Shown here in pieces: positions 1,930-64,000 of a stretch of 64,000 bases of DNA (position 1 is the first letter of the stretch; every line of letters begins with the position of its first letter). Source of the DNA: Hormiphora californensis (taxonomy: Eukaryota; Animalia; Ctenophora); NCBI GenBank assembly GCA_020137815.1, contig CM035362.1, positions 1,798,001-1,862,000 on the forward strand. Direction: 5' to 3'. The notes beneath the pieces are model-generated. The model did no database searches, was not told the origin of the DNA, and worked only from the letters and a program-made list of their open reading frames with translations. Position numbers and translations under genes: made by a program.

Positions 1930-3170
1930 CGATCCTATTCAGTTCATTGGCTATACTAATAGGGAGAGAGAGGAGTTAGAATGATAATGAACGAATTCAG
2001 TACTGTACAGTATCAGGGGGCCGCATTTGTGAGGGAGGGTGGAATGCCAAGGGTTGCGGAAGGCAAGACGATTCTTGGCAACAGCAGTAACACGAGGAGA
2101 GTTAGACTGCGCGTCCGCGCACAGAGTGGTGTGCTTTTTACACTAGCAAGATGTTTGGGAAATGCGTTCAATTGAACTTTCATACTTTAGTACTGCACTA
2201 CTTCAATATCATGATGACTTCATGTGTGGACTTGATGTGCAGAATGAAATTTCTAAAGAACTTACACGTAAAAGAAATTTAACATTCATACATGGAGAGA
2301 GAACTCAAAAATCAGAAAAACAATAATAGAGATCATCTCCCTTTTCCTAATTCTGGATCACACACTCCTCAATCACACACCAAGTGTCATTTTAAAGTTT
2401 CTAAAAAATACCATTTTCGTTAATAATTATTTAACTGTATTTAATTGTAAATTACAAAACAGATGACACACAAGGTTACAATCAAAAGTTCATGGAAACA
2501 TACACAGCTGCTTGATATCTTTGCCTTGTTCGACCCTCCCTCCCCGGGTTTGAACAAAACGATCTTTGTTATGTTCTAGCCCTCATTTACATTTGTCATG
2601 CGGGGCACGGTGAAACAGGGTCGAGCAACGCAATGATACTTATCTTACACGCCAGGCGATTCTCGCTCATGAGTCCGACCCTTCTCTCCCTAGTGAGTGT
2701 ACCTACATTCCAAAAGTTAGTTTGAGAGAATTAGTATGAAGGATAATGCCACAACTCCAGGCTGGATCATAATACAATGTCACATTAGAAAGAAAGTATG
2801 CTTGTTGTGTACTATTTAGAGTGCTTCTTAGCCAATTATCAAGCTTTACAATATTGTACACACATTACTAAGCTATCGCACATTAAACAAAAATGCCGGC
2901 ATTTACGATTGTTCTAATTTTGGCTCTCTACTTTCTACAGATCTAGCTAAGTTACATGATTAATCCCAGATGTTATAAAACGTTCACGATACTAAAAGAA
3001 AACTTAAAAACATAAAATACATACAAGTAGGTACTGCACAAAAGTGATTTAACTCATGAAAAAATGAGTTGCCATATTAGCTTGATTATCTACTGCATGC
3101 AACGTTAGGCTTGTTCATAATTGATAATATCTAACCCAATTAAAGGGTCAAGCAACATGCTGGTATCCCT

Positions 3171-20000: not shown

Positions 20001-22879
20001 AGGGGTGGTTTTAAAAAGAAGGGTTCTCAAATGTGGGAGGGGGTTTGGAAGGAGAGCAACAAACCGCCGAACTGAAGGCAAGGAGGTTAAGAGATTTGGT
20101 TCCAAAGTAGAGATGTTAGAGCATTGCAGTTAATTAATTGGATAGTATCTGGCTAAATAATTATCTGGCTAATTATCTGAAAATTATCTGGAAATTCATC
20201 ACTCTAGTAATTACCTGAAGGGACAGCATCCATAACTTCCACTTTGGATCTGACAGCAAGTTGTCCCTGTTGGACACAAACTCTGGTCAGGACACACCAC
20301 ATCATGTATCGGGACATCATCATCCTTCCGTTGTATTGGGACAAGTCTATCATTTCGTTGTATGGGAGAAAGTGGTAGTCCAGCTTTCTCTAGATTTCGT
20401 TGTATTGGGACAAGTGGTAGTTCACTATTCTTCATTCCTCCTTCTCTGACATCCGTTAGTGGTACTTCACCACCCCTCTCTTCCTCTTTATTACCACCAA
20501 CAAGACCCATGGCGACCATCTCCCCGCTAGCAGGCTGCACACACAGATGTGTCTTCTTATCGCACCAATGCCCTGTCGGACAACAATGCTCCCTATCAGA
20601 ACAACACACCGCTTTAGCAAAGGGACAGCACCCGTAACCACCATCTGGGAGTCTACAACACGTCTCCCAGTCCCGACACTCCATCTCTTCATCACATATT
20701 ATAGTGGTCACATTACTGCCAATAACTTGACTAGTGTTAATAACTTTGCGGGGAGATGCTGGTCGCTTCTTTCCCATAGGGATCCTATCCACCATTAGAG
20801 ACATGGTCTTAGCCGGTGGTTCGGGAGGAAGACACACGTTGGTTTCAGGTTGGACATGTGTAGTTAGTTGGACAACTGTGCACCCCATCATCACAACATG
20901 TTGCATTAGGAAAGGGAGAACACGTGACGGATTGGTCCTGCTGCATGCAACAGGTCTGCCCCTTGTCACAGGGATTCTGGACACCATGCGGACACTTCCC
21001 CCTAGTGCCTGATACAGGATCCGCTACTGATTTAGGTACTACAGGATCATCCCTGACTACTGGACCGGGAGCTGCTGATCTCAGACTCCGCTCTAGACAC
21101 AATCTGGGTGATGTAGCGGTGATATTGGTGTTGCAAGTCTGGTGGGAGGGGCAGCACCATGCCCCACAACATACACCCCGAGTCGTAGGGACAACACAAG
21201 GTGGGTAAGTGTCACGCCTGATCATGGGGAGAGACAGTTAGACATTACATAGCAGTGGAACTTATTATATAGCAGTGAAATTGGCTAGGAAGCAGTGGAA
21301 CTTGTACACAGCATATAATACTTATATCCAGGGAACAATACCGATATTTCATCAACAAATTTTCAACTAATTACAATTAATAATTAATTACCAACTAACT
21401 AGTTCAACTAATTTACCTGATTTGTTCTTTACTGGGCAGCACTTCTTCCCACTACAAAGTGAGTTATCAGCACAGAAAGTGTGGGTATCAGGGGAGGGGA
21501 GGGCGGCTACAATGGCATCTGCCACTGCTAGATTTCTTCTCTGGAAGTCTGATAGAGCTGCTTCATCGGCCTTCTGAGGGTGAGGTAATCTCCATTAAAA
21601 GTAAAGACTAACATAGATATTTCACACTTTTGAGAGTTTATGATTATTTTGGGATAACTTTTAGCAACTCGATTGTCGAAACCCCTTACTTGAGGCACAC
21701 CCACCGGTGGGTGCGCTAGTGTTACAAATAATCGAGGGGTTTCTAGGAACATATTATTGTCTTCAAATGAATATATTTTACTTGTCTTGTTCGAACCTCT
21801 CTCTCTCTCGCTTTCCACGCCCCCAAATGCAAAGGAGGGTTAGAACATAACAAATATTTTACCTCGAACTGCTGTTCATCTTGCTGCTTTGGCGTGTTTG
21901 TCACCATCGAAAGGAAGGGGTGAGCTAATACTCCCTTATCACTGTGTCCACGGCACTGAAATTTTATACACTTTTATCACCAGGTCTGCAGCAGCTGTGT
22001 GAGTTTGGTAAAAAGGGGCTTATTTTTCCAATTCCACCTAGCAAATTTCTGAAGAAATGCTGACAAAGCTGTTTTGCATCATCATTTCATCTCTAAAGTC
22101 TAAACAGAAGAACCTTCATGCTCATCTAACTGTTAAAATGAGAAATCCGGTACTAAGTACAACAAATTACGGTTTTGCCTTGCTCGACCTTGTTTCACAA
22201 AACAAGGTTACTTAAAGTTACAGGAACCGACCGACACAAGAAAACAACCAATCAGAACTCGTTATTTAGGTCACGTGACTGGTTATCAGCCAATCACGGA
22301 CCAGTATTTCCTGATTCGGTCGGTTGCTTTAATTAACTTACCCCGTGTTCGCTACACTCGGTATGTTTCGGACAGCAGAACGCAGAATGCTCGCTGCAGC
22401 ATTTACCATCGTTATATGGGCAGCACATGTAACCGGTGTGACCCCACTGCCAGGGAGAAGGGGGTTAGATGGGTACACAAGGGGGGGATGAAGGGAGGGG
22501 AGGTATTAGATGGGTACAGAAGGAGGGGCGATGAAGGGAGGGGATGGGTTATATGGGTAGGAGGGGGATAAAGAGAGAGGAGGATAAGTATTGGGGGAGG
22601 GGATCACAGAACCAAAATACTTACTTTACTTTTACAACAGGAGGACGAGTCGTGACACCACACGCTCATTCCCGGGCACCAGCCCCCATCTGAATATCTG
22701 ATGAAAACCTGAAAAAAAGAAGGACAATTAATTTATAATTGATTTACCAAAACCTGCCAGAGCGGAGAAAACACTTATTGTTATTAGATAACACACAATT
22801 TGTTACTTGATTTAACTTGTTTAAATGCTTAAATTAGAGTACTTACAGTTAAAAAAGCGAAAAAGTAAAAAAGTTTCAT
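8085..22879 (-). CDS. GRN: Progranulin-like protein with about 13 granulin modules over roughly 17 exons
   Basis: Signal-peptide start MKLFTFFAFLT (22879-22847). Repeated granulin motifs C..C..CC..GCCP..A.CC.D..HCCP.G..C occur in exons near 22700-22340, 21570-20216, 19990-19840, five tandem exons in 19694-18248, 18020-17789, 14957-14713, 14460-14094 and 13295-13211. A Cys-rich exon at 8273-8085 is in phase with the 13211 donor. Several single-base frameshifts fall in homopolymers. The true 3' end may extend to an exon near 7935-7800. Confidence 0.9.
8689..12987. mobile_element. 4.3-kb foldback element: about 2.1-kb inverted arms with 32-bp satellite, CAGGG termini, 5-bp TSD
   Basis: Starts CAGGGTGTGAACTGCATG and ends CATGCAGTTCACACCCTG, with GTAAC on both sides. 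The arms mirror each other almost base for base, including satellite variants. It lies in a progranulin intron. Confidence 0.9.
9238..12436. repeat. 32-bp minisatellite (CTCCATCTCTCAGCTWCCCTACCTCCCATTTA), inverting near 10890-10915
   Basis: The 32-nt period can be read directly (e.g. units at 9609 and 9641) and explains the 32-aa repeating pseudo-ORFs. Confidence 0.95.
13626..14075. mobile_element. MITE with TTAA TSD and AGG termini (Kolobok-like)
   Basis: TTAA|AGGTTGACAAGATACC...GGTATCTTGTCAACCT|TTAA with a TIR of about 100 bp. Purine-purine termini with a TTAA TSD fit Kolobok rather than piggyBac. Confidence 0.85.
15345..17487. mobile_element. 2.1-kb non-autonomous TIR element in a progranulin intron
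   Basis: TA|GACCAGTCATATGATG...CATCATATGACTGGTC|TA with TIRs of about 350 bp. The interior has many CACCTCA/TGAGGTG motifs and an internal palindrome at 16826-17150. No ORF. Confidence 0.85.
18243..19700 (-). repeat. Five tandem intron-plus-exon units, each encoding one granulin module
   Basis: Five near-identical exons encode DVTCEDGSVCEDGETCCKL(Y/S)DGQYGCCPYPSAQCCNDGEHCCPHGYTCNTEQGTCDRAFA, with similar short pyrimidine-rich introns. Confidence 0.95.
22221..22328. mobile_element. Short MITE-like repeat (CAGGAACCGACCGA...TCGGTCGGTT)
   Basis: Terminal inverted repeat, internal CCAATC twice and the GTCACGTGAC palindrome. It resembles a repeat I recall as abundant in Pleurobrachia sequences; not verified here. 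Confidence 0.6.
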
Positions 22880-29600: not shown

Positions 29601-32600
29601 CCCCGCTTAGCTAAATGTACAATGTACGGAGTGGCCGCTGTGTAATACGTCATAAAAGTAGACACCACTATACTGCCAGATTATAGAGAGAGATTTATAG
29701 AGAGAGATTTATAGAGAGAGATTTATAGAGAGAGGTTTATAGAGAGAGATTTATAGAGAGATTTATAGAGCAATATTCTCCCATTTTCTTTTATCTCTCC
29801 CCCTTTCCATCCTCCTATCTATCTTTATACCAGGCCACTTCATAAATCAAAGAATACTTTCCTAAAATGAAATAACCACTTCGCCAACAAGGTGGGGAAA
29901 GTCTTCAGAAAAGCAGCTTTAAATTAAGCAGTCTTCTTAGAAAGTAGAAATTATGTGGTTTAGTGATTTGAAATATCTTTATAGTGGTGGCTATTATAAT
30001 AGTTCATGGTTATGAGTTATACAGCTTACAAAGGTCGCGTTTTGATTAAGAATCTTGAATCTTCTCTGCTTCTAGAAAGAATGTTCTCAAAAACCTGCTG
30101 ATTGCTTCTTTCGGTGTCACCCAGAAAATTATTTTAGAGAATGTATACTGGCGGTGTGAGAGGTGATAGGAAAAGAGACCTTGGCCTCGATGCAAGATAA
30201 CGTGTTACCTAATCATATGACACTAACTCGCACAGTCATATTATACCCAGAAACTTATTCAATATTGATTTCAAATTTACAAACTTGATTTGCTGGGAAG
30301 GAAAGATGTAGTAATATCAACTCTACTATTTCACCTCTCATAATGGCTTAGCTCATCTGTCAGGACCCATTTTTATTTTCCCCCTTATTTTTTAACCCCA
30401 AAATATCACGGGGCAATGGTAAAATTTGACAGGAATTGAACCCCCCCCCCCCCCCCCCCCCCCCCTGAAACAGCTTAATTCTCCCTTTTTTCTCTCCCTA
30501 TCTTTTCTCTCGCTCATTTTGCCCTCTGATCTTTCCTTTTTCCTCGCTCTCTTTTTCCCTCTGATCTTTCTCTCTCCCTCTATATCTCTAACTCTCGGCT
30601 CTCAGATATTTCGCTCGAATACATCTTACCCACTAACCCTCTATCTATTTTTTTTAAAAACCCTTTTTTTTTCTTAGGGGCGGGGTTTCACGAGTAAGTT
30701 TCCCCTGGGCCCAAACCAAGCCCAGGACCCTTCCGGGATTGGTGGGTTTTTTCAGCGGTTCAAACCCCGGGGCTTCATATTAGAACGGGTTAAAATTTAA
30801 CAAAAAAAGGGGGGTTTGGGGGGGGAAAATTAAGGGTTTTTTTTTTGGTAAGCCTGGGTTAAAAAAAAAAGGAAAAAATTAAACTTTTTTCCTTTTTTTG
30901 AATTTAGGGAAACCCAATTAAAAGGGAACTTAAAAAATATAAGGGGTTTTTGGGGGAAAACCCCGGGGGACGAGGGGTTGGGGAGGGGGGGTTTTAGGGG
31001 GGGGGGGGGGGAAGCAAGGAAAAACCTTTTTTCTCCCCCCCTTTTTTTCCCTTTTTTGCTTTCATTTTTTTTCTTTCTCTTTCTCTTCTTTTCTTCTCCC
31101 CTTTCCCTCCCTTTTCCTGTTCCCCCCGGGGTTCTCTCTCTCTCCCCGTTTCTCTCTCTCCCCTCTAGCTCTTTCCTCTCTCCCCTCCCCTCTCTCTCTC
31201 TCTTTTTCCTCTCTTTCTCCTCTTTTTCCCCCCATTTTATAGCCTCTCTCTCTTTTCTCTCTCTCTCTCTCTTCTCCCCCTCTCTCTCTCTCTTTTTAGC
31301 TCCACTTTGAAAACTGTCTCGGTTATTAAACCCCCCAAAAAAAGCCCTCACCATAATCTTTATATATTTTAATCTGCAAGCTCTCTTTCCCCTTTTTTTT
31401 TTTAAATCAAACTAAACCTCTTCCCCCCTTTTGTTTTTTGTATTTTTTTGTCCCAAAATTTTTTATTGAAAAAAAAGTGAATGTGAGTTCGTCAAAATTT
31501 AGATCATCTTGATTCACATTTTACACATTTCTTCCTGAGATGGTTGTTTATAGCGCACTTTTCATTCAAAGAGTGACAAAATAGAAATAGAGAGAAAGAA
31601 AGAGAGAGGTTTTCAAATAAAGTTGATTGCCCACCGCTAGTCTCTCCCTCATACTATACAGTGAGTGTATGACTGTATAAACGACACCTGGTTTCCATTC
31701 ACAACTGCTGTTACTTGGTCATTTTAGAACCCCTTGTAAATCGATGGATGGGTTTTTTGGAAAAATTTTTGAAACAAGCTAATTTAAAAAAAGGGCTAGC
31801 AAAATTAAAGTAAAAAATCGGGGCGGGGAAAATAAATTGGGAAGAAAAAAAACCCGGATTTTGGGTTTTTTCTTCAATGCAAAATTTTGGAAAGGGGCCC
31901 CGGGGGAAATTTTTCCTTTGTTGTTTTCATTAACCGCTTAGAAAGGGCTTTTTTCCCTGGGGGGTTGGCCCCCAAAAATTAAAAATAATTAATTTTCCTT
32001 TTGGTTTTTCCCCCTTCCCCCTTTTTCCTTCCCCTTGTTTTTTTATTTTGTCAGCTCCCCCCCCGCCCCCCTTTTTCCCCCTTTTTAAACTTTCTTCCTC
32101 TTCGACCATCTCTCTCTCTCTCTCTCTTTTTTCTCTCTCTCTCTTCTCTCTCCCCCCCTCCCTTTTTCCCCCTCCTTTTTTTCTCTCTCTCTATTCTCTC
32201 TTTTTTATCCCCTCTCTCTCTTTCTCTATTTTTTTTTCCCCTAAATTTCTCTCTTCTTTTCTCTCTCTTTTCCCCCCTCCCCCCTCTTTTCCTTTTCCCT
32301 CCCCTCTCCCCCCTCCCTTTCTCTCCCTTTCTCTCTCCCATTACAAATGACTGAGTTACAGAATATCAAACGGGAAAACCATGAAAACCGACTCCCAAAT
32401 GAACCCCCTTTTTTATCCCCCAAACATACCGAATCTCTCCCCAAATCACCCCCGGTTTCTCTTTTTTCTATTTGGGGGTTTTTTTTCTATGCTTTACGGG
32501 GGGTTTTACGTAAGCATTTTGGGCTTGACACGTCCCTCTCTCTCTGTGGTGGCCCCAATCTCCTCATGTTTGAAAATTTGGGGACGTTAAAAAAATCGTA

Positions 32601-34999
32601 GTCCCAAAATTTGTTTAATGCCCCGTAACGAACCGCCCCCCTTCCTCGCATGCGTATTGACGTTGAGACTGTATAATTTGGGAAAGAAAAAAAAAATTTC
32701 AATTTTTGACAACCACAATAATTTTATGTTAGCGGCCCTAAAATATCAATGTTTTTTTTTTTGTTGTTCGACAGAGTCATCGAGACACTTTTGAAATCAC
32801 ATTCTAGCCGTGAAATGCTACGAATAATTTTTTTCAAACTTTTAAAACCTTTATTCAGCAACCCCTAGGGGGGGGCCACATGTTAATTGTTAAAAAATTT
32901 ACCTATTTTTTTTGATTTTGTTTAAATTTAAAAATTTAAATTAAAAAAATTAAAAAAAGTTAACCAAAAAACAAAAAACTGTTCTTTGGTTGAAAATACG
33001 ACTTTTTAAATGGTTTTTTTTTATAGTTTAAAAAGACTTTTTTTAACACAAAAAAACCCCCAAAAAAGGGGCCCCTTTTCCCTTAACCAAAAATCCGACA
33101 TACATGTTTTTTGGCTCAAAATCGAATTTAAAAACCAAAAAATTACAAAATTTTAATTTAGCGTATAAAAAATTTACTTTAAAAGTGATTTTTTTTATCG
33201 ATAATCGATTCTTTAAAAGAAAGAAGATGATGTACAACGTTTCTTTCGGAAAAAACAAAAAAATTTCCAAAATTAAAAAATTTTTTTGGGCAAAAATTAA
33301 AATTTGCCCTTTGCTACAAATCCTTGTGTTTTTTTTAAAAAAAAATTTATTTTTTTGGGGGTTTTTTTTTTTATGGTAAATTCAAAAGTCTCAATTAGTT
33401 TTTAAGGGGTTTAAAAAAGGTGGATTAGGGTCAATTGACTTCAATTGCGGTTTAGTTTGGCTAGTTTTTATTAAAATTTACACAATGGAACAAATCGCTG
33501 TAGAAAAGCCGTAGTAGAGGTTAGTAGGAGTGTGCAAATCGTGCAAAAGGAACAACTTTGCTCGCAGAACAAGTGTTAAATACCAAAAACACGCGCTAAA
33601 GGTGATTTAGATGGCATAAATGGCATTTGTTAACGTTTGTTAACTTTTTGTTAATTTTGTTAATAAATCACCTGTTTTCTCGATGTTAATATTAACAAAG
33701 TTAACAAAATTAACATGTCGCACCCCCCAACCATATTCACCCGGCCATTATGGAGACTGGAGAGACCATTGGAGACTGGAAAGTGGTTCATAACGGTGTT
33801 ACTAGACAATGCTCCATTTATATTGCCCTTGTCTAGTCAGCTGCAGTTGTGTATATGTCCATATAAGGAATAATTGGGTACGGGGCTTTGAACTGTCACT
33901 TTGTTCTGCATTCCCCCTACCCGTCACGCTCTTATCTGGTTAAAATGTTATCAACTTAGGAGCGTATATACTTAGTTTTCTGACTTCATTTTACATATTA
34001 TCACCATTCACCAATTAACTGTATGGCGGCGCCCCTTTTGATAGTGCGACAGTGCGCTCAGATGGGGTCGCGGACAGCCAAACAATGATAATCAAGTGTA
34101 CTTTTTTGGGGTTGGGGTTTCTTGGCTGGGGTTTTGGTTGTCGTCAGAGGTCAAAGTTCACTGGTACAGGTTTGTTATTGAGGGTATCGGGGTAGAATGC
34201 CAGGCGGGGATATATTGCGGTAAGGGGGTGTATATTATTTCGTCTCGTGATAGCTGAGGAAGTTTTTAGACCTCTCGTTGTTGATGATAGTCATGGTATG
34301 GTAGTGTGTGTTCAGCACTGTAGTACATTCCCTCTCTTGTCACTGCTGTGACACCCTGTCGCCTAGTGCTGTCATAGTGTATCTCATTCTCTTTCTATTC
34401 TCCTTATTTCTATCACCCTCCTTCCCTCTTTTCCTTTCACTATCCTTCCCACTACTTATCACTATATCTCTCTTCATTTTTATCATTTTTTCCTTGTCCT
34501 TCTCTCTTTTGCAACCCATCAAAAACCCACATCCTCCTCAGTCCTCCCTGTTAATATGAGTGACATATCACACATATTATATGTGTATGGAATTTCTAAA
34601 ACACGTTGCGAAACCTCATACTCTCTATCCACCTCTCTTCACCTCCTCAAGATTCTACCCCTCTCTCCCTCTTTTTTTCTCTATTTCTCTCTTTTCAACC
34701 CCTTCCCTCCTCTAATCTCTTCTTCTGCAAGTCTCTCCTCTCCTCTCCTGCAGCTTGACACTTGCAACTCGTCTTTTTAACTTTGTCGTGCTGCAGGTTT
34801 GAATTTTTTGGATCTTTACTACCGTCCTTTGTTTGACGAGAATTTACCAACGCCCCTCCCTTCAAGCCATGCCTTCTATCTCTCTCTCTCTCTCCTCACT
34901 CTTCTCCCCTCTCTCTCTCTCTCTCATCTCCTCTTATACTTCTTCCTTCTGGTTACTTCTGATGATTCGCCGCGTTAACTCCGAAACCGTGGTATCCGC

Positions 35000-39399: not shown

Positions 39400-39499
39400 N
39401 NNNNNNNNNNNNNNNNNNNNNNNNNNNNNNNNNNNNNNNNNNNNNNNNNNNNNNNNNNNNNNNNNNNNNNNNNNNNNNNNNNNNNNNNNNNNNNNNNNN
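39400..39499. other. Assembly gap (100 N)
   Basis: Run of n characters. Confidence 0.99.
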
Positions 39500-41465
39500 A
39501 CCCCCCCACAACTCCAATCTCAGCTTCCCAAACCCTTTGCCCCAAATTTTACTCCATCTTCAGAACCCTCCCTCCCATTCCCCCGCCCACCCCCCTTTCC
39601 CCCCCAGCCCCTACCTAACCCCTCCCATTTATCCCTCTATTACCCTCCTCCCTTTTACTCTCCCAGTTCCCTACCCCCCATTTTTTTCCCTCCCCCTTTC
39701 TCCACCCATTTTCCCTACCCCCATTTAGCTCCCTCCCCCCCTTTTACCCCAACTTCAGCCCCCTACCCCCCATTACTCACCCCCATTTCCCTACCCCCAT
39801 TTCCCCATCTCTCCCAACATTCCCCCTCCCCTACACCCCATCTTACTCCCCTACCTCCATTTACTCACTTATTTCCCTCCCTCCATTTTTCCACTCTAGT
39901 TCCCACCCCCCATTTACCCCATCTTAATTTTCCCACCTCCCTTTTACTATCTCTCAGTTCCTACCCCCATTACTCCACTATTTTCCCTATCCCTTTTACT
40001 CCATCCTATTCCCTACCTCCCATTTACTCATCTCTCCTCCCCCCTCCATTTACTCCATCTTCAGCTCCCTATCCAACCCCTCGCCCAAACCCAACCCACC
40101 TTAGCACCACCCCAAACCCCCAAAACCCAAACCCCCCCAAAACCCCAAAACCCCCCTCCCTTTACCCATCTCTACTTCCCTACCCCCCTTTACTCCATCG
40201 TTCCCTTCCCTACCCCCCTTTTACTCCACTCTCACTTCTCTCACTTTCATTTATCCTAACTTTCCCTCCCCTGAGAGGGGAAAATGGGGGTGGAAGCTGA
40301 GGATAAAGTAAAGGGGAAAGGGTGGAAAAGCTAAAAGGGAGAAAAGGGGGGTGGGTTGCGGAGAGGGGTAAATGGCGGTGGGGAAGCGGGGAGGAGTTGG
40401 GGGTGGACGGAGATGGGTCAGGGGGGTAGGTACTAAAGGGGAAAAAATGGGGGTAAGGTGTGGGATGGGTAAATGGGGGGGTGGGGAAGTGAGGAGGGAA
40501 TAAATGGGAGGTAGGGAGTGAGGATGGAGTAAATGGGAGGTGGGAAAGCTGAGGAGGGAAAAGAAATGGGAGGTAGGGGGAAGATGGGGGGGTAAAGGGG
40601 AGGTGGGAAGGAGAGAGGAGTAAATGGGGGGTAGGGTGTTGGGGAAGGGAGTGAATGGGGGGTAGGGTGCTGAAAATGGGTAAAGGGAGGCAAGGATGGA
40701 GTAAAGGGAGGTAGGGAAGCTGAGGGAGGTAAAGGGGAGGTAGGGTACTGAAGAGGAGACATGAGGGGTGGGTAGCTGAAAGATGGAGTAAGAGGGTAGG
40801 GTAGCTGAGAGATGGACTTGATGGGGGGTAGGGTTTTTAGCGAAAGAGGGTAGTAGGGGTAGGGTAGCTAAAAAGAGGAGTAGATGGGGGGGGGGTGGGG
40901 AGCTGAGGACGGTTTGATGGGGGGTTTAGGATAGTGGAGAGTGGGTAGAAAAAGACAAAAAATATTTGTTGGGCACGACCCTCTTCTACTCTCGTGTTTC
41001 CCGATTTCTGCAGCTCTGGTGGATTTTGAAGCGAAGGCGTAAATAAATAAACCGACATGAACAGACATGCGAGAGGGAAAATTTTCTTTATTTAAAAGTT
41101 TTGTGGGGTGCGATTTTTTGTTTTGGGTGGAGAGTGAAAGGGCCCGGTACAGTGGAAAAATAGTTTAAAAAAACGTACCCCTTTAGACGGATTTTTCCTA
41201 TTTGTCTGTTTGAGATATGGCCCCCAAAAAGTTTGGGGCCCCAAAATGCTGACGGGGGCACGCGAGGGAAAAAGGGCATCAGTTTTTCGGTACGCTCCGT
41301 TTTTCAAGGGCTTGAACGAGGGGGCGGGAAGAGTCTACCCATTACATGGTACCTTTAAATTTGGGATTAAAACTAAAAGATGAGCAGCATGTGTTTAAAG
41401 AACCTTGAGTGTTTTCTTGTCTCGCAAGCGCCTCGCGACTGCAAACACACACAGTTCACACCTGG
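39500..41465. mobile_element. Second, error-rich copy of the 8689-12987 foldback element
   Basis: C-rich then G-rich satellite halves meet at the same centre (TTATCCTAAC...CCCTGAGAG, about 40250-40277). The same unique arm follows, ending CAGTTCACACCTGG near 41465. The left end is lost in the gap. Confidence 0.8.
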
Positions 41466-43759
41466 TATAGCGTTTTGTATATCAATCAGGGGTGTTCAAG
41501 AATACTGTAGAGCTTTTTAACATTTTGAGGGGGGTGTAGAACACAGATCAGTAGTAGGCATACGGCCGTTTTAGTGTTTTTTGTAATTGTTTTTTTAATT
41601 ATTTTAAATTATTTTTAGTGAATTTAAATTAGTATTTTTGTGCCCCGGCCAGTATGATTATTGATTTTAGGCGAACACCGCCCACCCATAATACCCCTGT
41701 AAGTTGGGAGGTTAACGTTAGGGGGACCCAAAGGGGGAAAGGGGGAAAAAGAACCAAAATTTAGTTTTTTTTTGATTATTAACCCAGTTTTATGGCAAAT
41801 TATATAAAGGGTAATAGTAAATCAGGGTTTTTAACCCCCCCTTCCCGTCAGGGCTCAACCTACGGGCGTGGTTTCAACAGTTTAAAGAGGGGGAACCGAC
41901 ACGCAAAAAGTAAATTGGGGAGGGGTATCAGGATGGTATCACCCTCCCCCAAATAATATGGGTAAGAATCATTCGTCCGAATCATAAGTTTAGCTTTGTT
42001 TCCGCGTTGGCGTTTCATTGAGAGGATCCCCTAAATAATGGATTTTCCCGCCGAGATTAAACGATACCACAACTATCATATCCCTAATTTTCCAAATTTC
42101 CAGGCGAGGACCCCGGCCTGAGTGATTTACTCCCAAAACAGTGCCCCCAGGAAAAAACATACGGGTGTGTTTCCCCGATCTCCAACAGGCCCCATTCCCC
42201 CCCGGAAAAGCACTGCCCCCGGGGAGTGGTTTTCTGGGGAGGTACTAGTGGTTGGGGGAAAACGGCTAGTCTGAATTTTTGTGTAAGAAATCGTTTTGGG
42301 GAGAGCTGGAGAGATTTAGGGAGAGAGGGAAAGGGATTAGGAAAAGGGGAAGAGGAGGGGGGGGTCACCCAACAATAGAGGGGGGCAATTGGGTTTTAAA
42401 CCGAACAGCGGGAAAAAAGGGTTTGGGGGAAAAAATTTTAAAATTTTTTTAAAGAAGCAAAAAAAAATTTTTTAAAAAGGGGGGGGGGGAAAAAAAAAAA
42501 CCCCCCAATTCATTTTGGTGTAATGTTCAAACCCCGCCAAACGCCCCCAAAAAAAAAGGAAAAAAATTTTTTTTTCTTTTTTTTTGGGGGAATGGGCAAA
42601 AAAAAAAGGGGGGGGGGGCCCGGGGCCCCCCCCCCCAAAAAACCCCCCCCCCCAAAACCCCACGTTTCTCTCCTCTCTCTCTTCTCCTCTCTTCTTCTCT
42701 CTCCTCCCCTTTTTTCCCTCCTGTAGACGCCTATTTATGATAATCCCATCTTTGTATTTCCTAACCCCCTTTTTTTTTCCAAGAAAAAGGAAGTTTCGCC
42801 AGTTTTTGGAGAAACCTTTTTTCAAAAATTTCCCTTTGTTTCAAATACGTTCTTTTTTTTTGGCTGGGGGAAAAATAGCAGGAAGGGCCGGGGGGGACGA
42901 GGACTTGAGTAGAGATAGATGAAAATAATAAAGATGAATTGTGATAGGATCTAACATGTATTCTTTGACGCCTAGGAACTTGTTTTGGTTCTCTCCCATT
43001 TATAACTAACTCTGGTATTTCTTGAAAGAGATCATTATGCTGCTATAACTCATTTACCAGTCATTTTCTATCATTTCCTTCTTCGCTTTTAATAACCTGT
43101 CTCTTCTACAGAATCTCTCTATTTTTACTTCATCTGAGTTTTTACATCTAGCCAAGTCCTTCGTCCCATTAGCATTTCTTCCCATCCTTGAGTGAGTGTG
43201 GAGTCTTTCTACTTTCAGTTTCTCACACTGTAGTTTAGTGTGAGCTGCAGCTGCCAGGAGAGATATACATTGTGAGTCGTGAGAGATGAATTCTGAGACA
43301 ATTGCATCTCACAGTCTGTCTCTGTCTCTGTCTCTGTCTCCAGAAAGAGAGAAAGACATAAACCTAGAGAGGTTACATTAATAAGTTGAGTTTAGCCGAT
43401 TTTCTCTACTCGCCCGATATTGTCTGTAAATGAGTGACGATTATTCCTTTTTATCTCAGTCATTATCTATCTATCTATCTAGGATCTATCTATCTATCTC
43501 GCTCTATCTTTCTCTTTTTCTCTATTTCTCTCTCTTTTTCTCTCTATCTCCCTCGTTGATCTATCTATCTAAATCTCGATCTATCTTTCGATCTATCTCC
43601 ATATCTCTCTACCCTCATGATACTGCGTGTATCTCCTCTCTTGTTACACGGCACTTTGCACAAGCACTCCGAGAGAGATAATTTGCTGCTGCTGGTGCAT
43701 ATTGCATTGTATGCCACCCCTAATCCACGTCAACGTAGTAGTCTCGTTTTATCAGGAGT

Positions 43760-51000: not shown

Positions 51001-52264
51001 CTTCGAAATTATTGACCGTAGGCATTATCGTACGTAATCCGACACCGAGCCACCTAATTAGGGGTTGTGAGCCGATACCAACTAAGACTCAGCATAGAAA
51101 AATCTTTATGTTCCTACAGTCGAATAACGCAACTAAAACGTAGAGCTATGGAAAAAATCATGGTATCAAAATGAACCTTAGACGATTCCAATGAAGCTCT
51201 TATAAATTTCAAACCATTTTACCGATTTGTTGATGACACGTGATCCCCTCAAAAATGTTGGTTGAATTTCGTCTTTAGACAGTCATAAGACACTCTAAAC
51301 ATTGAGCTAGGACAAAAACCCGGGTACCAAAATGACCGCCAGACAATTTCCTACAACTCTTATGAGGGATGCAATGTGATCCGAGCAACTTTGCATTTGT
51401 GAATTTTTCAAAACGTGAACCCCGGTCGGATTTCATGAACACGTATTTTTGACTTTAAGACGATATATCTGACGGTTGGTAAGACTTGGAACATCAATCT
51501 TGTACCCTAGTGTTCGCCTGACAATTCTCTACAACACTGTTTTTGGTTGAGCCGTTTTGACCTATTTTTCGATGAGTTATGAACATTTGAATGGAACGCA
51601 CTCATCACCCAAAATCACAGGTCACGCAAAGACAGTGGGACACCCTGTATAATCCCATTCTCCCCACTAGATTATGGAATTAAAAGCGGAAGTATTACAC
51701 TTCTCCACTCGAGACAAATTCCTGAGCACGGAGCTAGAGGAAAGAAATAGACAGCTGACTAAAGCTAAAACTCTTCATGAAAAGAAAATGGTGAGAAAAT
51801 GAATTATTTCTAGATGATCAGACTTTTTAGTCAAATAATTAAGTTAACTACGTTGTTATGCCTCACTCTCTAACACTATAACTACGTTTCTAACTTGTTG
51901 ACTCAACAATTTCTAACACTAATTGTCTCTTCAGATAATGGCAGATAAGTCTCGATCCCACAACAATTCCTTTCACCACCGTCCCCAAATAGGTCCCACT
52001 AAGATCCTCTACTACTTCGGGACTTCCACCACCCCCTACCTCTCACAAACTACTAAACGGCTCGGTGACATAACCCTACGGGACTTTAAGGGCATTGTCA
52101 ATAGGGCGGGTAAATTCAGATACAACTTCAAGTGTCACGATCCTGAGTTTGGAACGGTTAAGGAGGAGATTATTGAAGATGGGGCTGTTCTCCCTGGATG
52201 GGATGGGAAGATTGTGGGGTTCGTAGAGGAACAGAGTACTTCGTTGGACCATATTGAGATTTGA
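44476..52264 (+). CDS. DIXDC1: DIXDC1/dixin-like protein (end of CH domain, coiled coil, C-terminal DIX); exons 44476-44560, 46167-46261, 46575-46693, 49367-49489, 51671-51790, 51935-52264; 5' exons not securely located
   Basis: [22 protein letters not shown] matches the end of the dixin CH domain. The middle exons are coiled-coil-like. The last exon [15 protein letters not shown]...[12 protein letters not shown]...[18 protein letters not shown]...[14 protein letters not shown] is a dixin-type DIX domain. All intron phases agree. Confidence 0.88.
45960..46172. repeat. Tandem repeat of about 44 bp containing copies of a splice acceptor
   Basis: CTGCTCTCTCCTAGTTAAAGTAACAATCTCTCCCCTAGATCG is repeated about 5 times. 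The last copy is the acceptor of DIXDC1 exon 46167. Confidence 0.9.
47012..47700 (-). CDS. Secreted F-type-lectin/galactose-binding-fold protein nested antisense in a DIXDC1 intron (exons 47700-47462, 47306-47012)
   Basis: Signal peptide [13 protein letters not shown], then [35 protein letters not shown] and IKEVMVYG, following the fucolectin/F5-8 type C pattern. The phase-2 GT-AG intron joins the two ORFs. Confidence 0.72.
47806..48096. mobile_element. TA-flanked MITE (AGTCGAATTTTTTATTTAAGCGACAGGCCG TIR)
   Basis: TIR of about 45 bp, visible at both ends. Confidence 0.8.
48288..48922. mobile_element. hAT-type MITE with an 8-bp TSD and internal palindromic tandem repeats
   Basis: CTTCAGAC|TAGGAGCCGGCGATAT...ATATCGCCGGCTCCTA|CTTCAGAC. 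The interior is about 14 copies of a unit of about 40 bp built on ATATCGAATCGATATCGAATCGA. Confidence 0.9.
49646..51647. mobile_element. Tc1/mariner-type non-autonomous element with TIRs of about 370 bp, TA-flanked
   Basis: TA|CATGGTGTCCCACTGTC...GACAGTGGGACACCCTG|TA, with long, nearly perfect TIRs. Confidence 0.85.
50247..51039 (-). mobile_element. Internally deleted MULE element carrying the 3' part of its transposase (50657-about 51000)
   Basis: 8-bp TSD CGACACCG and TIRs containing ATAATGCCTACGGTCAATAAT. The [29 protein letters not shown]...CSNPS matches the MULE RTNNxxE motif. Confidence 0.8.
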
Positions 52265-52925
52265 AAGAGCGTGTGTTTCGTATATTTGAGAATTATATAG
52301 ACTCTCGAAGGTTGCTGTAATATTTGTAAATAAAATGTGTGTAATTGAGCCTGTAGCTCTGACGTCGCCAGACCCCGATTTGATTCTCAGTGCGCTCAGA
52401 TGGGGTCTGCGGCGCTAGACAGATTTGAGCTGGTTTGAGGTAAAAGAGAGGGTTGTTCAGATGTGTTTATTTCAGTGGACCGCGGGTTGTCTGCTGAGTT
52501 CTGTAATTGTTTGAAAATATAGTTGTCAACAATGAAGGTCTGAGTTTTTAAAACAACAGTTGGACCCTGGTTGAATGGGGAAGGGGTTTGCCTGGTAAAT
52601 TTGGGTGCCCGGTATATTGAATATCGGGGTAAAATACCGTTTATTTCCTATATCGAGGGAATTTTATCCTCCCGGGGTCCGACTGTATAAAGCAAAGTGT
52701 CCAATATGATGGTAACCCCCGCAATTCACATCATGTATCTCCTGTCATGCTCTGACACAAGATCTCCAGTTTTTGTGTGGTTATGGTTTCCGTTCTGTGT
52801 GTTTGTGTGAGTTTGTTTTCAAGTAAATTTTAAAAACCCCACAAAATTCAGTTTTTAAAGGGTCACAAATCATCATAGAATTTGAGCACTGCTGGTTTTT
52901 CCACATGGATTCCATAATTACCAAG

Positions 52926-55900
52926 TTACGGGATATCGGCGCACCTACCACAGGTTTTGGGGCAATACGTAACAGCCAGTTCGTCCTCCTTGCACAGGGC
53001 TGGCATGCTAGCACAGTCCTTCCAAGAATCCTCACAGTCGTCCTGGAAACGAGAGGGGAGTTATAACTGGCAGTTGTTCTGGAAACGAGATAGAGAGGGG
53101 GTCATTGAGGTACACGGTAAATCGAGGTTTGGACGTTTGGTATGGCTGTTATACTACCCTTGGGACGGGTATGGCGGCGCCATACCCCATTTGACAGTGC
53201 GCTCAGATGGGGTGGCGGCGCCAGACAGTTTGGGGCCCAAATTGGTAATCAAGGGGTAACATTTCATGGTGGTACTGGTAGTTATTGAAATTATACATAT
53301 TGGTATGTAAAAGGCTGAGCGAGCGGCAATTCTGCAAGTTTGGGACTTTTAGTTTTGGTTCTGGAGCAGCAGCTGGGATTATGTATGTATACTATCAGTT
53401 GTATCAGCAGTAACGGGTTTTCTTAACCGAACCGATCGTTCGGTCGTTTCTGGTATCACTATCAGCATGGAAAACGGGCAGTATTTTCCGGTTAAAAACT
53501 GCAGCATTGTATCTGAACTGGTTTCCTTACAGGGTGCTGGGTAGGGGGTACAATGTCATCGCATCTGTCACACGACAAGGGGCAGTATTTCAGGGCAAGG
53601 TCCTCCTCTAGGCATACTCCAGGCATATATGGACAGTCAGGATGACTGTCTTTACACTCCTAACACAGACACAATTCAATGTTATTTGGCAAATTTGGGT
53701 AAGCCGCAAATGTTGTCTGGACGTCGTTCCAATGTTGTCTAGACTTGTTATTATGTTCTAGCCCTTTGTTACATTTGCGAAACACAGTCTAGCTCTGTAT
53801 GGCGGCGCCATACCCCATTTGATTCTCAGTGCGCTCAGATGGGATCGGCGGCGCCAGACAAGTCTAACTAGGCAAGTCTATACGGGTTTTTCCAACATGG
53901 GCTTGAGGCGGAGTCAAACGTGCTTGAGACGTGTTTGGCACAAGTCTGTTTCAAGCCCGTCTTAGGGAACCCCGTTACTGTTAGACGGGTACGACGGTGG
54001 AGTACTGGAGCGACGTCCAGACAACTTTTTTAGCCAATCCAAATTTCCCAGAAGTCAAATTGTGAATAGATGGTCACTTGTTGAGGGTTTTGTGGCCCAA
54101 GTCAGCAGAAATCAGAAACAGGGCAGTATTTTCCGGTTAAAAACTGCAGCATTGTATCTGAACCGGTTGCCTTACAGGGTGCTGGGTAGGGGGTACAATA
54201 TCATCGCATCTGTCACACGACAAGGGGCAGTATTTCAGGGCAAGGTCCTCCTCTAGGCATACTCCAGGCATATATGGACAGTCAGGATGACTGTCTTTAC
54301 ACTCAATATCCTAACATTATTGTGGCATATTTGTACAAAAGTGAAAAGTGAAATTTGTAAGTTGGTTGAGCTAGAACTTCTAGAAGTCAGGTTTAGCAAT
54401 TCTCTTACCGTGGGTGGCTCGGGGGCTGCAGTGGTTGGTCCTGCAGTGGTTGGGGAATCAGTGGTTGGGGAATCAGTGGTTGGGGCAGTGCCAGTAGTGG
54501 GCTCTACAGTTGTTGGAGCAGCGGTGGTTGGGGCTCGGGTAGGAGGGTCAAAAGGGCATTCAGGTACATTCTCAGGCCAGTCACAAACTTGTTCCTCTTC
54601 GTTGAACCAGAGCTCTGGGTTATCCTGGAAATTAGGAATTAATTAGCTGATTAGTAATACTTGGAATTTTAATTGGGGATCAACAAGTGAAGTCAACTTC
54701 TATTACTAAATCACGGTGAATGTGTTCCTATTTATCTCATACTATGAGTCATATTCTTCCTAAATTCTATCATACCGGGCAAGTCAGGTGGAAGAGACGA
54801 CCGTTGAAGCACCTGTAAAACCTGTTACAATCCTCCTTGTCCAAAAACCGACCATCTTTCTTGCAGTCCAGCGGGTTTTCTGTGGGCCCTTGGGTTGTGG
54901 GCTCGACTACCGTGGTGGGTTCAGGAGTTGTGGGTTCAGGGGTTGTAGGTTCAGGAGTCGTAGGTTCAGGAGTAGTAGGTTCAGGTGTTGTAGGTTCAGG
55001 GGTTGTGGGCTCAGGAGTCGTAGGTTCAGGAGTCGTAGGTTCAGGAGTCGTAGGTTCGGGAGTCGTGGGCTCAGGAGTCGTAGGGGCGTCAGTAGGAGCG
55101 TCAGTAGGGGCGTCAGTGGGGGCGTCAGTGGGAGCATCAGTAGGGGCGTCAGTGGGAGCATCAGTAGGGGCGTCAGTGGGAGCAGGAGTGGGAGCATCAG
55201 TAGGGGCAGGAGTGGGAGCATCAGTAGGGGCAGGAGTGGGAGCATCAGTAGGGGCAGGAGTGGGAGCATCAGTAGGGGCGTCAGTAGGGGCAGGAGTGGG
55301 AGGGTCCAAGGGGCACTCAGGTACATTCTCAGGCCAGTCACAGACTTGGGCTCCCTCGTTAAACCAAAGACCATCCTGGGAGAGGATATTGGTGAATGTA
55401 TATGAAGCATTTTAATTTATGCTAACACTGTTACTAACACTGTTAGAGGCCAGAGACTCCTGTTTGTTAGTAACAGACAAGAGTCAGTGGCCTCTCACTT
55501 CGACTTATAGGACAGGGCCCCTTTGCATTGCTTGACGAGGCGCCCTTACAGGATACCCCCAGATACCCCCCGATACGTACAGGGCAGGGCATGTGATGTT
55601 TCTGCTCACCCACACACCACCAGTATTTGTTGCAGTCAATCTTGTCCAGGAACATCCCATCCCCGGGACAAACAAACTCACACTCTGGAACATTCTCAGG
55701 CCAATCACATTGTCCCTTTGCCTCGTTGAAGTACAGAATCGGATCCGTCTGAATTGGAGTTTGTTAGGGGTTGCGACTTGTTGGTAGTTGGTAATGGAAT
55801 TTTATTTTCAGGGGTTGGGACTAGAATTGGGTTCTTGGAGTTGGATAGTTCAACACCACCAGACAGCTATTCACAACTCACCGGGCAAGGCATATCAAAG

Positions 55901-56331
55901 ACTCCAGTTTGGTCGCACACCCAGTACCGGTTACAATCGTCTGGGTTCCTGAACCACCCGTCACCAGGACACTCGAATGCGGTTGCCATGACAACCATGA
56001 GAGATGCCAACACGATCTAAGGAGGGGGATGGGTGAGAGAGTGACATCTGTCTGTCTAGTCTAAGTCAGGAAAACCCTGTCTAGCGTAGCCAGACCCCGC
56101 TTTGATCGGGTCGGCTTTGCCAGACTGGGATCACCTGACCGCTCCGTTCAGATTCTGGTGATTGCTGACGCCGCAGACCCCGTCTTTAGTGTACTCAGAA
56201 CGGTGCTGCGGCGCCTCACAATTCTCCGTTTCTGTCTGGCAGACAGCTCCGTTTGAAGACGGAGGTCGGAGTTCAATTTTAGGGTTTTGAGAGAAAAGGT
56301 CGATTTTATTGTTTTATTTCCTAACCTTCAT
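52926..56331 (-). CDS. Secreted peritrophin-like protein: 3x CBM14 chitin-binding, Thr/Pro mucin repeats, C-terminal ShKT (exons 56331-56326, 56016-55882, 55748-55581, 55375-54776, 54624-54409, 53042-52926)
   Basis: Signal peptide MKIVLASLMVVMATA. Three six-Cys units C..DG.F....DCN.Y..C......CP...L.FNE....CDWPENVPEC, plus (PTDA)n and (PTTPE)n tracts. The last exon is CEDSWKDCASMPALCKEDELAVTYCPKTCGRC. All introns are phase 0. Confidence 0.9.
53476..54305. repeat. Direct duplication of about 185 bp (53476-53660 and 54121-54305)
   Basis: Two near-identical copies of GGGCAGTATTTTCCGG...GTCTTTACACTC in one intron. Confidence 0.9.
53795..53858. mobile_element. Hairpin mini-repeat family of about 60 bp (also near 34021, 52357, 53170, 56165)
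   Basis: TGGCGGCGCCATACCCCAT...CAGTGCGCTCAGATGGGG..GGCGGCGCCA recurs five times in the window. Confidence 0.7.
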
Positions 56332-57269
56332 TGTGAATCTCTAGAGCACAAAATACCAGAACAGGGCGTACTAAACAAAGAGATCTCTCAAAAGAAGGAG
56401 TGTTCAACTAATGAATCTTTGTTGTAGCCCCACCTCAACATTGTGCTAAATCAGTTAGGCAGGTGGTGGTGTGTCGGAGAATTGTCTCCAACTGATTTAG
56501 TAAACTGTGCTAGGAGGTGCTAAACTGTGCTGGCCACATGTGGACTGGCTGGCGGTTATAATATTTAACTAATTAGGAGCATCTCAAGAGCCTAGCATCT
56601 CAAATACAGTCGGACCCCGATTTACTGCGGTATACCGGCCACCGAGATTATCGAATATAGATGGAACCGGAAACGATTTTAATTCATTAGATAAATCGGG
56701 GTCTGGCTAAAGCTAAAGTTTTGGACCTTTTCTCTCGTATTTAGAATTTTGATAACTTCAGGATTTTGGTTTTTCTGGGAAGATTAATAAAGAGTAATTG
56801 GGATACAGCATCACACCCTGATCAAAATCACACACACACAATCACACAATCACACGCCCTCTCACACACACACACACACACACACCTTCCAGACAAAAAA
56901 CGTCACCCAAACTCACACATAAGTCCACAGATACAGCTAGGCTCACGTGAACAATCATCGCTGCAATCTTGTTCACAACAAAATATCTCTCTCGGTTAAA
57001 AACTAATAGCCGATAAAAACCCCCACGTTTCTAATATTGTCACGTGACCAGTCACGTGATATTTCATTTCATTGTCTTTTTCGTATTTTATCTCCTTTAA
57101 AAATGATAAATCATATAACGCCCTTGTTGAAAAAAGTCCAAGGTCTGTTGTCCTAAATATCACATTTGATTGGTAACAACAGCCATGGTAACCATGACAA
57201 CCAGATCTGCAGTCTGTAATCACCATAGTAACCATCTTGGTAACCGCATGTTCCTCTCTCTTCAACTCT

Positions 57270-60826
<3,557 letters not shown>

Positions 60827-61417
60827 TTAGTTGAATATTGAATACTATCCCTCTTTGACGCTCCCTGATCCCTGTCGTAAACCCTCCCTAAACCATCTAA
60901 TCTAAATTCTGCTGAAACTTTTAAAACTTGATATGACACCTCAATTCAACCAAACCCTGATATTTTCAGATTTCTACAACTATAATAACAGTCCAGTAAT
61001 ACACGGCCCGCTGCTACTAAATTCTAAAATCTCACTCTCCTTCTCACACTGTGTAATAGATGGGAATAGTTAATTGTAAGATAATGCCCTGTCATCAAAT
61101 CAACCCTCTACAACACCCCCACCAGCAGAACACTGTTTTATTTCTTTTTTAATCCAACCTCCCCCTGTCACAACTAGAGAATCATACTGTTATTCTAACC
61201 CCCAGGTTTGTTATGTTTTTCATTTATAAAAGAGGGGCGCTGAGAGAGGATCGAACAAGGCAATCCCCTAAAACGGATAGAATTCTGAATTTGAAGCCCT
61301 TCATTGGACCCAAGTACAATTGTTTTTGTTTGTTTTGTTAAGTACACATAATGAACATTTATACATCCAACAATTGTGCTCTCTTTCTCTCTTTCTCTCT
61401 TTCTCTCTTTCTCTCTT

Positions 61418-61483
<66 letters not shown>

Positions 61484-61897
61484 ACCACACCGTTCTATAA
61501 TTGTACCCAAATTGTTGCTGGTGCTATTTTGGAAGAAATGTGTGTCTCCTGTTATGTCAACAACACACACACAAGGTGATCTCACCCCATTTGATCGGTT
61601 TTCTCTTTGAGTCTGGACCTTGTTAACGTGGCTGAATTAGTTTTCTTGTTCAATTAAACTTGTTTTCTTGGTAAATATAGTTGGTTGTGATAGATTCCCA
61701 CTTGTTCAGAGGAAAGGAAAAGCAATTATTTGTTTACTTTCTATTCTGTTTACTTTCTATTCTGAAGTTTTGAATAATCGTATTTGATCGGTTTCAACAG
61801 TTTGTTTGATTCATTGATCGTCCTATAGCGGCCTAAACACCAGTTTATTTCCCTCTATCTCTCTATCCCTCTCTCCAGGTATGTTGGTGTTAGTGAT

Positions 61898-63885
61898 ATG
61901 GTGAAATATGTATTACCCCTGACGACCCTCATCACTTCTCTACTCCTCCTTCTTCCCGGGCAACATGCCAACATTTGTAGCAGCAACCCCAACATAAAGG
62001 CATCCGGGGTTAAAACTTATAATCAGGTAGGGATGTGTATTGTGTAACCATGGTAACCTAGAGATAACACCGTAAGTGTGTAACCATGGTAACCAAAAGT
62101 TACCCTCCCCATGATCATTATTCCCGCAGGATGAAAAAACGTATGTCGATGAGACGAAGATATCTTTTAAAATTGGCCTAGATGAGACAGTATGCTTTGA
62201 GATACGCGAGAAAAATGCATACACCCCAAAGGAGGTGTTCAGGTATGTTACCATGGCAATCTTTTCAATGCCCAAATAAGGACAAAAAGGGATATTTTAC
62301 AACCTAATAAGGTCATTGATTTCACAGGATATCCTTCTTGGATGTGGATAGCATCTTCACCTACAAGAACTCGTATGACTTTGCAATAGCTGAGAGTCAC
62401 GTGACGTGTGTCTGTGATTGCCCGGGTATGGAAGACCAGTGTTCACCGATCCGACAGAGTTGTAAGGAGGAAGAGGACCAGTCGCATTTGTGTTGGAACT
62501 TTTATAAAGGTTTGTACTGCGATCAATATATCAGATATTGATACCAACTACTACGGAAAATAACCGGGAAATAACCACTACCGATAATTACTAACCACTC
62601 GGGGTAACTAATGGTTACTAACCACTCGCTCCCGGTAACCACTGGTTACTAACCACTCACCAGTATTGCCCTATTTCAGGTGATCAATCATCTGAGGGAT
62701 GTGGAGTATTTGAGACGATGGGGTCTGCCGAGGTTTGCTGTGCTGTTGATTTTACACCATTCCTGGGTCAAACATACAAAGCATTCCAGGTTTGTCTTTG
62801 CACATTTATCTGTGTAGTACTTGTGAGCGAGGGCGCTGGTAAGGGTTCGGCAGAGCAAGTCCTTTTTTTGAAAGCTTATGTGACATCCTAATATGATCTG
62901 TTACAGGTTACCACCCCAACAACTCGGGGTAAGTTTGTCTTTGAAACCCGGACCAGTAACATCACCAACACCTTCTCGACTAACTTGGATAAGGCCAGCA
63001 AGAAGTTTATTGACCAGGATACCGCCATCTCATTTGAAACACCAGGTAGGGAACCTGCGACAGCTGAAACCCATACTAAGTTAATTCCATCAGCCAGCTT
63101 TCTGCTAGACTTCCTGGCCCTCTCCCGCTGTGCATGATACTAACATGACCCTGAGACCCTCGTTGGGTTTTCTACTACTACTGCTAAATCATGTTGTCAG
63201 GTTCCTCTGTTGCAATACCAGATGGGTGGTACTACGGGGCTCTGAACACCAACGAAGTACTAACCAATGTCCAGATTAATGGACTTAACGAGTGGAAGCT
63301 GAACAAGTTGGGCTGGCTGAAGTATGGACCGGACGGAAAGTTGAAATATAGCGAGAGTGAGGTTTCAAAGGTAACGATACTTGTACTTTGAGTTAGTTTT
63401 TAGTGCACTTGGCTGCCCGTAACGCAGCATATGAGGTGCACTTCGCACGCCGGAAAGGGAAAGGTAGCGAGCACCAGTTGACTTTTTTCACGATCCTTCC
63501 ACAGACGTTTTCTGCGGAGGCAACCAGCTGTCCTAACAACTTGATGAAGGTTGACTTTAGTTCCCCGTACGCTAACAGAGAGATTACGGAATCTCAGAGA
63601 CTCGATCAGTTCTTTCAAAGCACAATACGGTAACTTTATATAGAATCACTATCTTTCTCTATCTCTATCTCTATCTCTATCTCTATCTCTATCTCTATCT
63701 CTATGTTTTGGCAGGAAGGTAGTGAGGGAGGACGACCGCCGACATTTTCTGGTGTACTTTAGAAGTTTTGAGAAGCTGAATGTCCAGTTGACACTGCGTA
63801 ATGAGTATACGGTAGTACCCCATAAGTATGAAAGTGCCTTTACTAGCTTTACTGGAGCTGCACTACTGGATAAACACTCCAACAG
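61898..63885 (+). CDS. EFF-1/AFF-1 family (fusexin, class II) cell-cell fusogen, 5' part; exons 61898-62026, 62130-62242, 62328-62509, 62680-62789, 62907-63045, 63201-63370, 63505-63629, 63715-63885; continues beyond the window
   Basis: Signal peptide MVKYVLPLTTLITSLLLLLPGQHA. Motifs are colinear with C. elegans EFF-1 as I recall it: FKIGLDETVCF, YDFAIAESHVTCVCDC, LCWNFYKGDQSSEGC, VCCAVDFTPFLGQTYKAF, DGWYY, NGLNEWKLNKLGWLK, FTGAALLDKHSNR. All seven introns are GT-AG and phase-consistent. Confidence 0.88.
63648..63703. repeat. (CTATCT)n microsatellite
   Basis: Hexamer tandem repeat in a fusogen intron. Confidence 0.9.
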
Positions 63886-64000
63886 GTAAGATAAGTCCTT
63901 ATATGGTAGGAATCTCCTAATATGGGCAGAAATATATTGCCATTTAAGGTCATGATCTTCATAAACAAGGGCCAGGAAGAGATAATATTCTACATAATAT

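Follow-up and report, generated by a model that had tools for sequence, protein, structure and literature searches.

The window, a stretch of 64,000 nucleotides from the ctenophore Hormiphora californensis, holds at its right-hand end a real, conserved and new member of the known EFF/AFF family. Judged from its sequence, it is a host gene and no recent viral insert. Our preferred reading, to which we give a probability of roughly 60%, is that its product would act as a surface fusogen that trimerises, folds back and merges the plasma membranes of body cells, and would in this way form or repair syncytia, for example those of the nerve net or muscle. EFF-1-like proteins of ctenophores are already on record (PMC6504885, PMC4723337; papers are cited here by their accessible sections), as the sequence-only reading of this DNA had also stated. 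The interest lies in testable candidates and in the observations on the domain II tip and on paralogs, not in the presence of the family in ctenophores.

A split gene of the EFF/AFF family

Eight coding exons (Table 1) were joined to 379 codons containing no stop. All seven complete introns are of the GT-AG type, measure 85-170 bases and agree in phase. The closest full-length relative of the product is a protein of Mnemiopsis leidyi with 677 residues (KAL5246729.1, hypothetical protein ACHWQZ_G018820), termed P0003 in the following; other relatives likewise carry P numbers. An acceptor AG at 61877-61878, before coding exon 1, suggests an untranslated exon 5' of it. The N-terminus of the window protein is hydrophobic, with a best 11-residue Kyte-Doolittle mean of 2.22 at residues 8-9, and by hydropathy it fits a signal peptide. 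The gene had been described as intact, which holds for the eight in-phase exons with their lack of stops, but the gene is seen only in part: since a GT donor stands at 63886, the gene continues past the window, whose edge is reached at about residue 375 of the 677 residues of P0003, and domain III, stem, anchor and tail are absent from the visible part.

Table 1. Coordinates of the EFF/AFF-family gene, its cd loop and the neighbouring repeat domain within the window.
Feature	Position	Strand	Remarks
Coding exon 1	61898..62026	+	Contains the start codon and the first cysteine; residues 1 to about 25 probably a signal peptide; N-terminus of P0003 aligns here
Exon 2	62130..62242	+	tblastn match to P0003 35-69
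Exon 3	62328..62509	+	Cysteine-rich part, domain II; PF14884 32-88, E 7.1e-7, above cut-off; 63% to P0001
Exon 4	62680..62789	+	Contains the cd loop at the domain II tip; PF14884 92-123, E 7.7e-5
cd loop, Cys149-Cys162	62700..62741	+	CGVFETMGSAEVCC; in exon 4; aligned via P0003 to the EDD tip of EFF-1
Exon 5	62907..63045	+	Aligned with P0003; no EFF-AFF match when scanned singly
Exon 6	63201..63370	+	PF14884 188-234, E 1.8e-5
Exon 7	63505..63629	+	tblastn match to P0003 277-317
Exon 8	63715..63885	+	PF14884 298-346, E 0.0013; followed by the GT donor
RPB1-type C-terminal repeat domain, five exons	59099..60807	-	PF05001, E 1.1e-20

When the exons were scanned singly, four of the eight matched the Pfam EFF-AFF profile PF14884, in profile order. 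One of these four, exon 3, exceeded the curated cut-off by itself (28.6 bits against 25), while P0003 reached 177 bits. The joined window protein scored 266 bits on an EFF/AFF family profile, for which 75 rows of a 96-row alignment were used after 21 ctenophore-like rows had been taken out by hand; 500 shuffles reached at most 7.8 bits. All 12 cysteines of the window protein face cysteines of P0003, and the ten P0003 cysteines between residues 104 and 285 all face cysteines of EFF-1. C. elegans EFF-1 (PDB 4OJC, 4OJD, 4OJE, 4CYL) and AFF-1 share the colinear cysteines and have a signal peptide, which is probable in the window protein. By these matches the window gene is a member of the EFF/AFF family. 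They uphold the identity proposed by the sequence-only reading, which had named an HMM search against Pfam as the check, as well as its description of a cysteine-rich ectodomain colinear with EFF-1.

A Pfam scan of the window exons and of P0003 gave no match to the HAP2 signature PF10699, and P0003 matched no viral family in it. The same scan gave a Pox_I1 match on exon 5 (E 0.044), which was treated as chance. The ESM Atlas ranks EFF-AFF first, at 0.86, which serves as a lead only.

Relatives and probable paralogs in ctenophores

A search with exon 3 returned two unnamed proteins, and the cluster of one of them contains KAL5246729.1. Across 372 columns P0003 and the window protein share 49% identity. 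P0003 has the same 12 cysteines and the same type of tip, and carries a hydrophobic helix at about residues 503-530 followed by a cysteine-rich tail. It is the probable ortholog of the window gene.

HMMER with P0003 as query yielded 164 proteins with E values no greater than 0.001, and 150 of these were listed. Most of the 20 matches looked up had no name; those named include proteins of Bolinopsis microptera, Pleurobrachia bachei, Branchiostoma, Owenia and Panagrolaimus. The alignment comprised 83 rows of 330-1000 residues, without near-duplicates, DIX hits and a single repetitive protein. After removal of six low-cover rows a fast tree was computed from 77 rows, and 40 of these, chosen by hand, were analyzed with IQ-TREE. 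In the IQ-TREE result the window gene and the Mnemiopsis group are joined with a support of 100/97, P0016 comes next (100/99) and then a Bolinopsis group (100/99). Support for adding the Pleurobrachia protein to these is weak (72/36). The placement with the Mnemiopsis and Bolinopsis proteins agrees with the ctenophore affiliation that had been suggested for the gene.

Mnemiopsis and Bolinopsis are close relatives. P0003 and P0017, a protein of the Bolinopsis cluster, are nevertheless only 33% identical, and we therefore infer several paralog lineages of EFF/AFF in ctenophores, at least three. Bolinopsis microptera XP_063692208.1 and Pleurobrachia bachei sb/3463226 share the EFF-AFF domain and a hydrophobic tip with the window gene, but they are only 30-32% identical to its product and are probably paralogs. 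Divergence among the paralogs to about 30-38% identity would suit a protein that kept the class II fold, lost fusion and now serves in adhesion or surface recognition, and the fusion tests described in the accessible sections of PMC6504885 were made on nematode members only. Such a loss of fusion appears decidedly improbable, as the cysteines and the membrane-proximal segment are conserved from EFF-1 to Mnemiopsis and the ortholog group shows a conserved domain II tip.

Seven unnamed EFF-AFF-like proteins from ENA fall neither in the nematode clade nor in the ctenophore clade (P0022, P0025, P0026, P0028, P0032, P0033 and P0051). Several of them are near full length, and two, P0022 and P0025, differ in the arrangement of cysteines at their tip. 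A further relative, P0024, belongs to the annelid Owenia fusiformis; annelids are absent from the lists of family distribution in the accessible sections of PMC6504885 and PMC4723337.

Predicted class II fold

Among the sequences of solved structures, EFF-1 was the sole match to P0003 below E 1 (E 8.4e-23). A model was folded from a 96-row alignment for P0003, that is, for the probable ortholog and not for the window protein. It reached a pLDDT of 80.6; most of the ectodomain exceeds 85, whereas the tail is disordered. In the PDB the three best matches to the model were EFF-1 structures (TM 0.81-0.85 by target, rmsd 2.9-3.3 Å, E about 1e-32), with a structural identity of 17-19%. Phlebovirus Gc came next, followed by further class II proteins of viruses and by HAP2, all at 8-14% identity, and matches in BFVD were 9-13% identical. 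From P0003 a three-domain class II fold, one membrane anchor and a cysteine-rich cytoplasmic tail are predicted for the window product; P0003 has the fold, the stem and the single membrane anchor in common with EFF-1. Exon 2 of the window gene would, by this model, supply strands of domain I. A class II fold had been named as a trait of the family, with a comparison of a structure model to EFF-1 as the check, and the comparison, run on the Mnemiopsis relative, supports the fold for that relative. HAP2/GCS1, phlebovirus Gc, alphavirus E1 and flavivirus E have the fold in common with the model. They stand apart in their low identity, and the window gene is an intron-containing host gene.

A hydrophobic tip of domain II

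The tip of domain II in EFF-1 carries an acidic EDD motif (PMC4050280), at a site that in the class II proteins of viruses is taken by a hydrophobic fusion loop (PMC4050280, PMC8784728). A hydrophobic domain II tip is common to HAP2 and the viral class II proteins (PMC5332557, PMC8784728), and the cd loop is also treated in PMC12236693. In contrast to EFF-1, the window gene is without the acidic-tip trait: its cd loop is hydrophobic, with Val, Phe and Met together with two Glu at the position of the EDD. The loop of P0003 is hydrophobic as well and three residues longer than that of EFF-1, and in the model a short helix (146-151) lies between two strands at the tip.

A tip was scored as hydrophobic if at least two of loop positions 1-5 were hydrophobic. 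This applied to all eight rows of the ctenophore set, to 5 of the 29 rows of the nematode-containing clade and to 17 of 20 rows from other lineages, where the groups were drawn by hand from the fast tree, the rows are non-independent and five rows without the anchor motif were left unscored. Mean acidic counts in the loop hardly differ among the groups (1.0, 1.24 and 0.9). The idea of a ctenophore-specific hydrophobic tip was ruled out by the 17 hydrophobic rows among the 20 from elsewhere; by these counts such a tip is common outside the nematode clade and no ctenophore invention. An acidic cd loop is, in the aligned rows, a trait of EFF-1 and not of the whole family, and its absence is no bar to membership. 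This distribution suggests that the acidic, two-sided design of EFF-1 may be a speciality of the nematode clade and not the family rule.

The hydrophobic tip of the window gene suggests direct contact with the membrane. It is no proof of one-sided fusion, because Arabidopsis HAP2, which has a hydrophobic tip with a short helix, gave bilateral fusion only in heterologous cells (PMC8784728). The same likeness to Arabidopsis HAP2, including the short predicted helix, and the cysteine-rich tail of P0003 would also be expected of a HAP2-like gamete fusogen. A gamete role is hardly probable, however, with sequence and fold nearest EFF-1 and far above HAP2 (rank 27 among the PDB matches, 11% identity), and with EFF/AFF roles that are somatic as far as they are described in the accessible sections of PMC6504885.

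Host gene and intron history

GC3 of the window gene is 0.53, compared with 0.56 and 0.49 in two neighbouring host frames, and the neighbours upstream are host genes. None of 75 pattern matches in viral contigs was confirmed in an exact-pattern search, a method of low reach, and none of 113 and 315 pattern matches to relatives was confirmed in metagenome contigs. An origin as an envelope gene of a virus or retrotransposon, recently made endogenous, or as a pseudogene in decay would be in keeping with a fold that is common to bunyavirus Gc and a nematode endogenous-retrovirus envelope, with relatives that seem intron-poor and with a 3' half that lies beyond the window. Such an origin is largely refuted and very improbable, in view of seven canonical introns with no stop, viral matches at only 8-14% identity, the host-like GC3 and, within its low reach, the viral-contig search. 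The sequence-only reading had likewise preferred a domesticated gene to a recent viral insertion; introns, conserved relatives and viral fold matches of at most 14% identity all point this way.

Intron richness had been counted as a mark of this domestication. The seven GT-AG introns are present, but they are a weaker sign of old domestication than claimed, because close relatives seem to be without most of them. Protein ends alone served to place the introns of the relatives. In P0001, from a 918-kb contig, a single frame runs across seven of the eight intron positions of the window gene, P0016 spans eight of them and P0167 seven; close unnamed relatives of KAL5246729.1 differ from the window gene in an open frame across seven of these eight positions. 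Other relative fragments end where the window gene has no intron. P0126, which is 89% identical to exon 8, stops at donor 63886, and the intron after exon 8 appears to be present in this near relative also. The short divergent tails of P0001, P0002 and P0006 past residue 436 suggest that these three are unspliced frame calls. The introns of the window gene may be young. We infer an independent gain into an intron-poor gene, to which general intron turnover in ctenophores is the alternative.

Possible role in cell fusion

Both EFF-1 and AFF-1 bring about the fusion of cells and of neurites (PMC6504885). For the window gene we prefer a corresponding role in the fusion of body cells. A class II fusogen that passes the membrane once is predicted for its product on the basis of the Mnemiopsis relative. 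By analogy with the family, surface monomers would trimerise and fold back and thereby draw two membranes together. Domain II's hydrophobic tip would, to go by its loop, contact the bilayer or insert into it as in HAP2 and the viral class II proteins, whereas the acidic tip of EFF-1 is proposed to rest on head groups instead. Syncytia of body cells, such as nerve net or muscle, would be formed or repaired as the outcome. Against this stand the several paralog lineages, which mean that this copy may serve another tissue, and the tip, which other non-nematode lineages share with ctenophores (17 of 20 rows) and which in the window loop retains two Glu. The nerve-net syncytium may, moreover, come from incomplete division (PMC7617566).

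The fusogen might instead remodel the membranes of single cells, in wound sealing, auto-fusion or endocytic and phagocytic scission, and not build multicellular syncytia. EFF-1 and AFF-1 do so in C. elegans (PMC6504885) and injured ctenophores are reported to fuse (PMC13482580). The sequence does not separate this role from cell-cell fusion, but the latter is the best-documented role of the family (PMC6504885), and we regard single-cell remodelling as unlikely. 

Returning to the preferred role in syncytia, the tissue in which it would be played is a separate matter. Ctenophore nerve nets are syncytial, and fusion versus incomplete division is stated as open (PMC7617566): Burkhardt et al. 2023 left undecided whether nerve-net neurons stay connected once they have divided or extend towards one another and fuse. 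That the nerve net is the tissue of this copy or of its ortholog is a guess, and a rather doubtful one; ctenophores seem to carry several paralogs, so that the window copy need not be the neural one. A more far-reaching scenario is quite unlikely. In it an expanded ctenophore family would have a HAP2- or virus-like tip, the ortholog group would fuse neurites one-sidedly to build or reconnect the nerve net, and introns would have independently filled an intron-poor ancestor.

In the literature searched, outside of which most subscription papers lay, no ctenophore EFF/AFF gene was found tied to a tissue or function. The accessible sections of PMC10730927, PMC9816575, PMC12407032, PMC7617566, PMC13482580 and PMC13749725 give none, and the term EFF-AFF was absent in a term search of the readable supplements of PMC13749725, PMC12221973 and PMC9525235. 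Mnemiopsis KAL5246729.1 and its paralogs are specific candidates for the question of fusion versus division, and a laboratory ctenophore permits their localisation, knockout and assay. If it were true that one of them builds the net, a fusogen of the nematode type would underlie the most unusual of animal nervous systems.

Genomic setting

The exons of the RPB1-type repeat domain (Table 1) join to an open frame of about 327 codons, in which 11 heptads are exact. Altogether at least seven repeat exons were seen at 57270-60807 (minus strand), consensus heptads coming first and degenerate ones after. The last repeat exons gave no in-frame join in two trials. No repeat-like candidate for upstream exons was found in 60830-64000, nor was the gene body found in the window. 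Because the upstream exons were not found before 64000, RPB1 is the probable host of a nested gene, and an RPB1 intron probably contains the EFF/AFF gene in antisense orientation; the alternatives are a misjoin or a repeat gene standing by itself. Hormiphora commonly has nested genes, of which 2357 are reported (PMC8527503).

Some further features of the window were observed. A gap of 100 N lies at 39400-39499, and the low-complexity regions at about 30800-33400 and 39400-42900 resemble poorly polished sequence, so the quality of the assembly may be uneven. A long tandem repeat at 9500-12170 forms two inverted arms with near-identical frames on opposite strands. At 52900-56000 (minus strand) a gene with chitin-binding peritrophin-A domains (PF01607) and long Thr/Pro-rich repeats was found, which also has small cysteine-rich exons, one of them duplicated. 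Contig cover of 52000-64000, from one run, fell mainly on the repeats of this peritrophin-A gene, where it was very deep; exons 2-8 of the EFF/AFF gene had no usable cover, which speaks neither for nor against their expression. A dixin-like DIX-domain exon is present at 51923-52264 (plus strand); from 52 candidates a search with it returned dixins of fish, amphioxus and tick and none of a named ctenophore. On the minus strand, a gene with an arrestin domain and a Pro/Gly-rich tail lies at 804-5281 and one with granulin repeats at 20211-21237.
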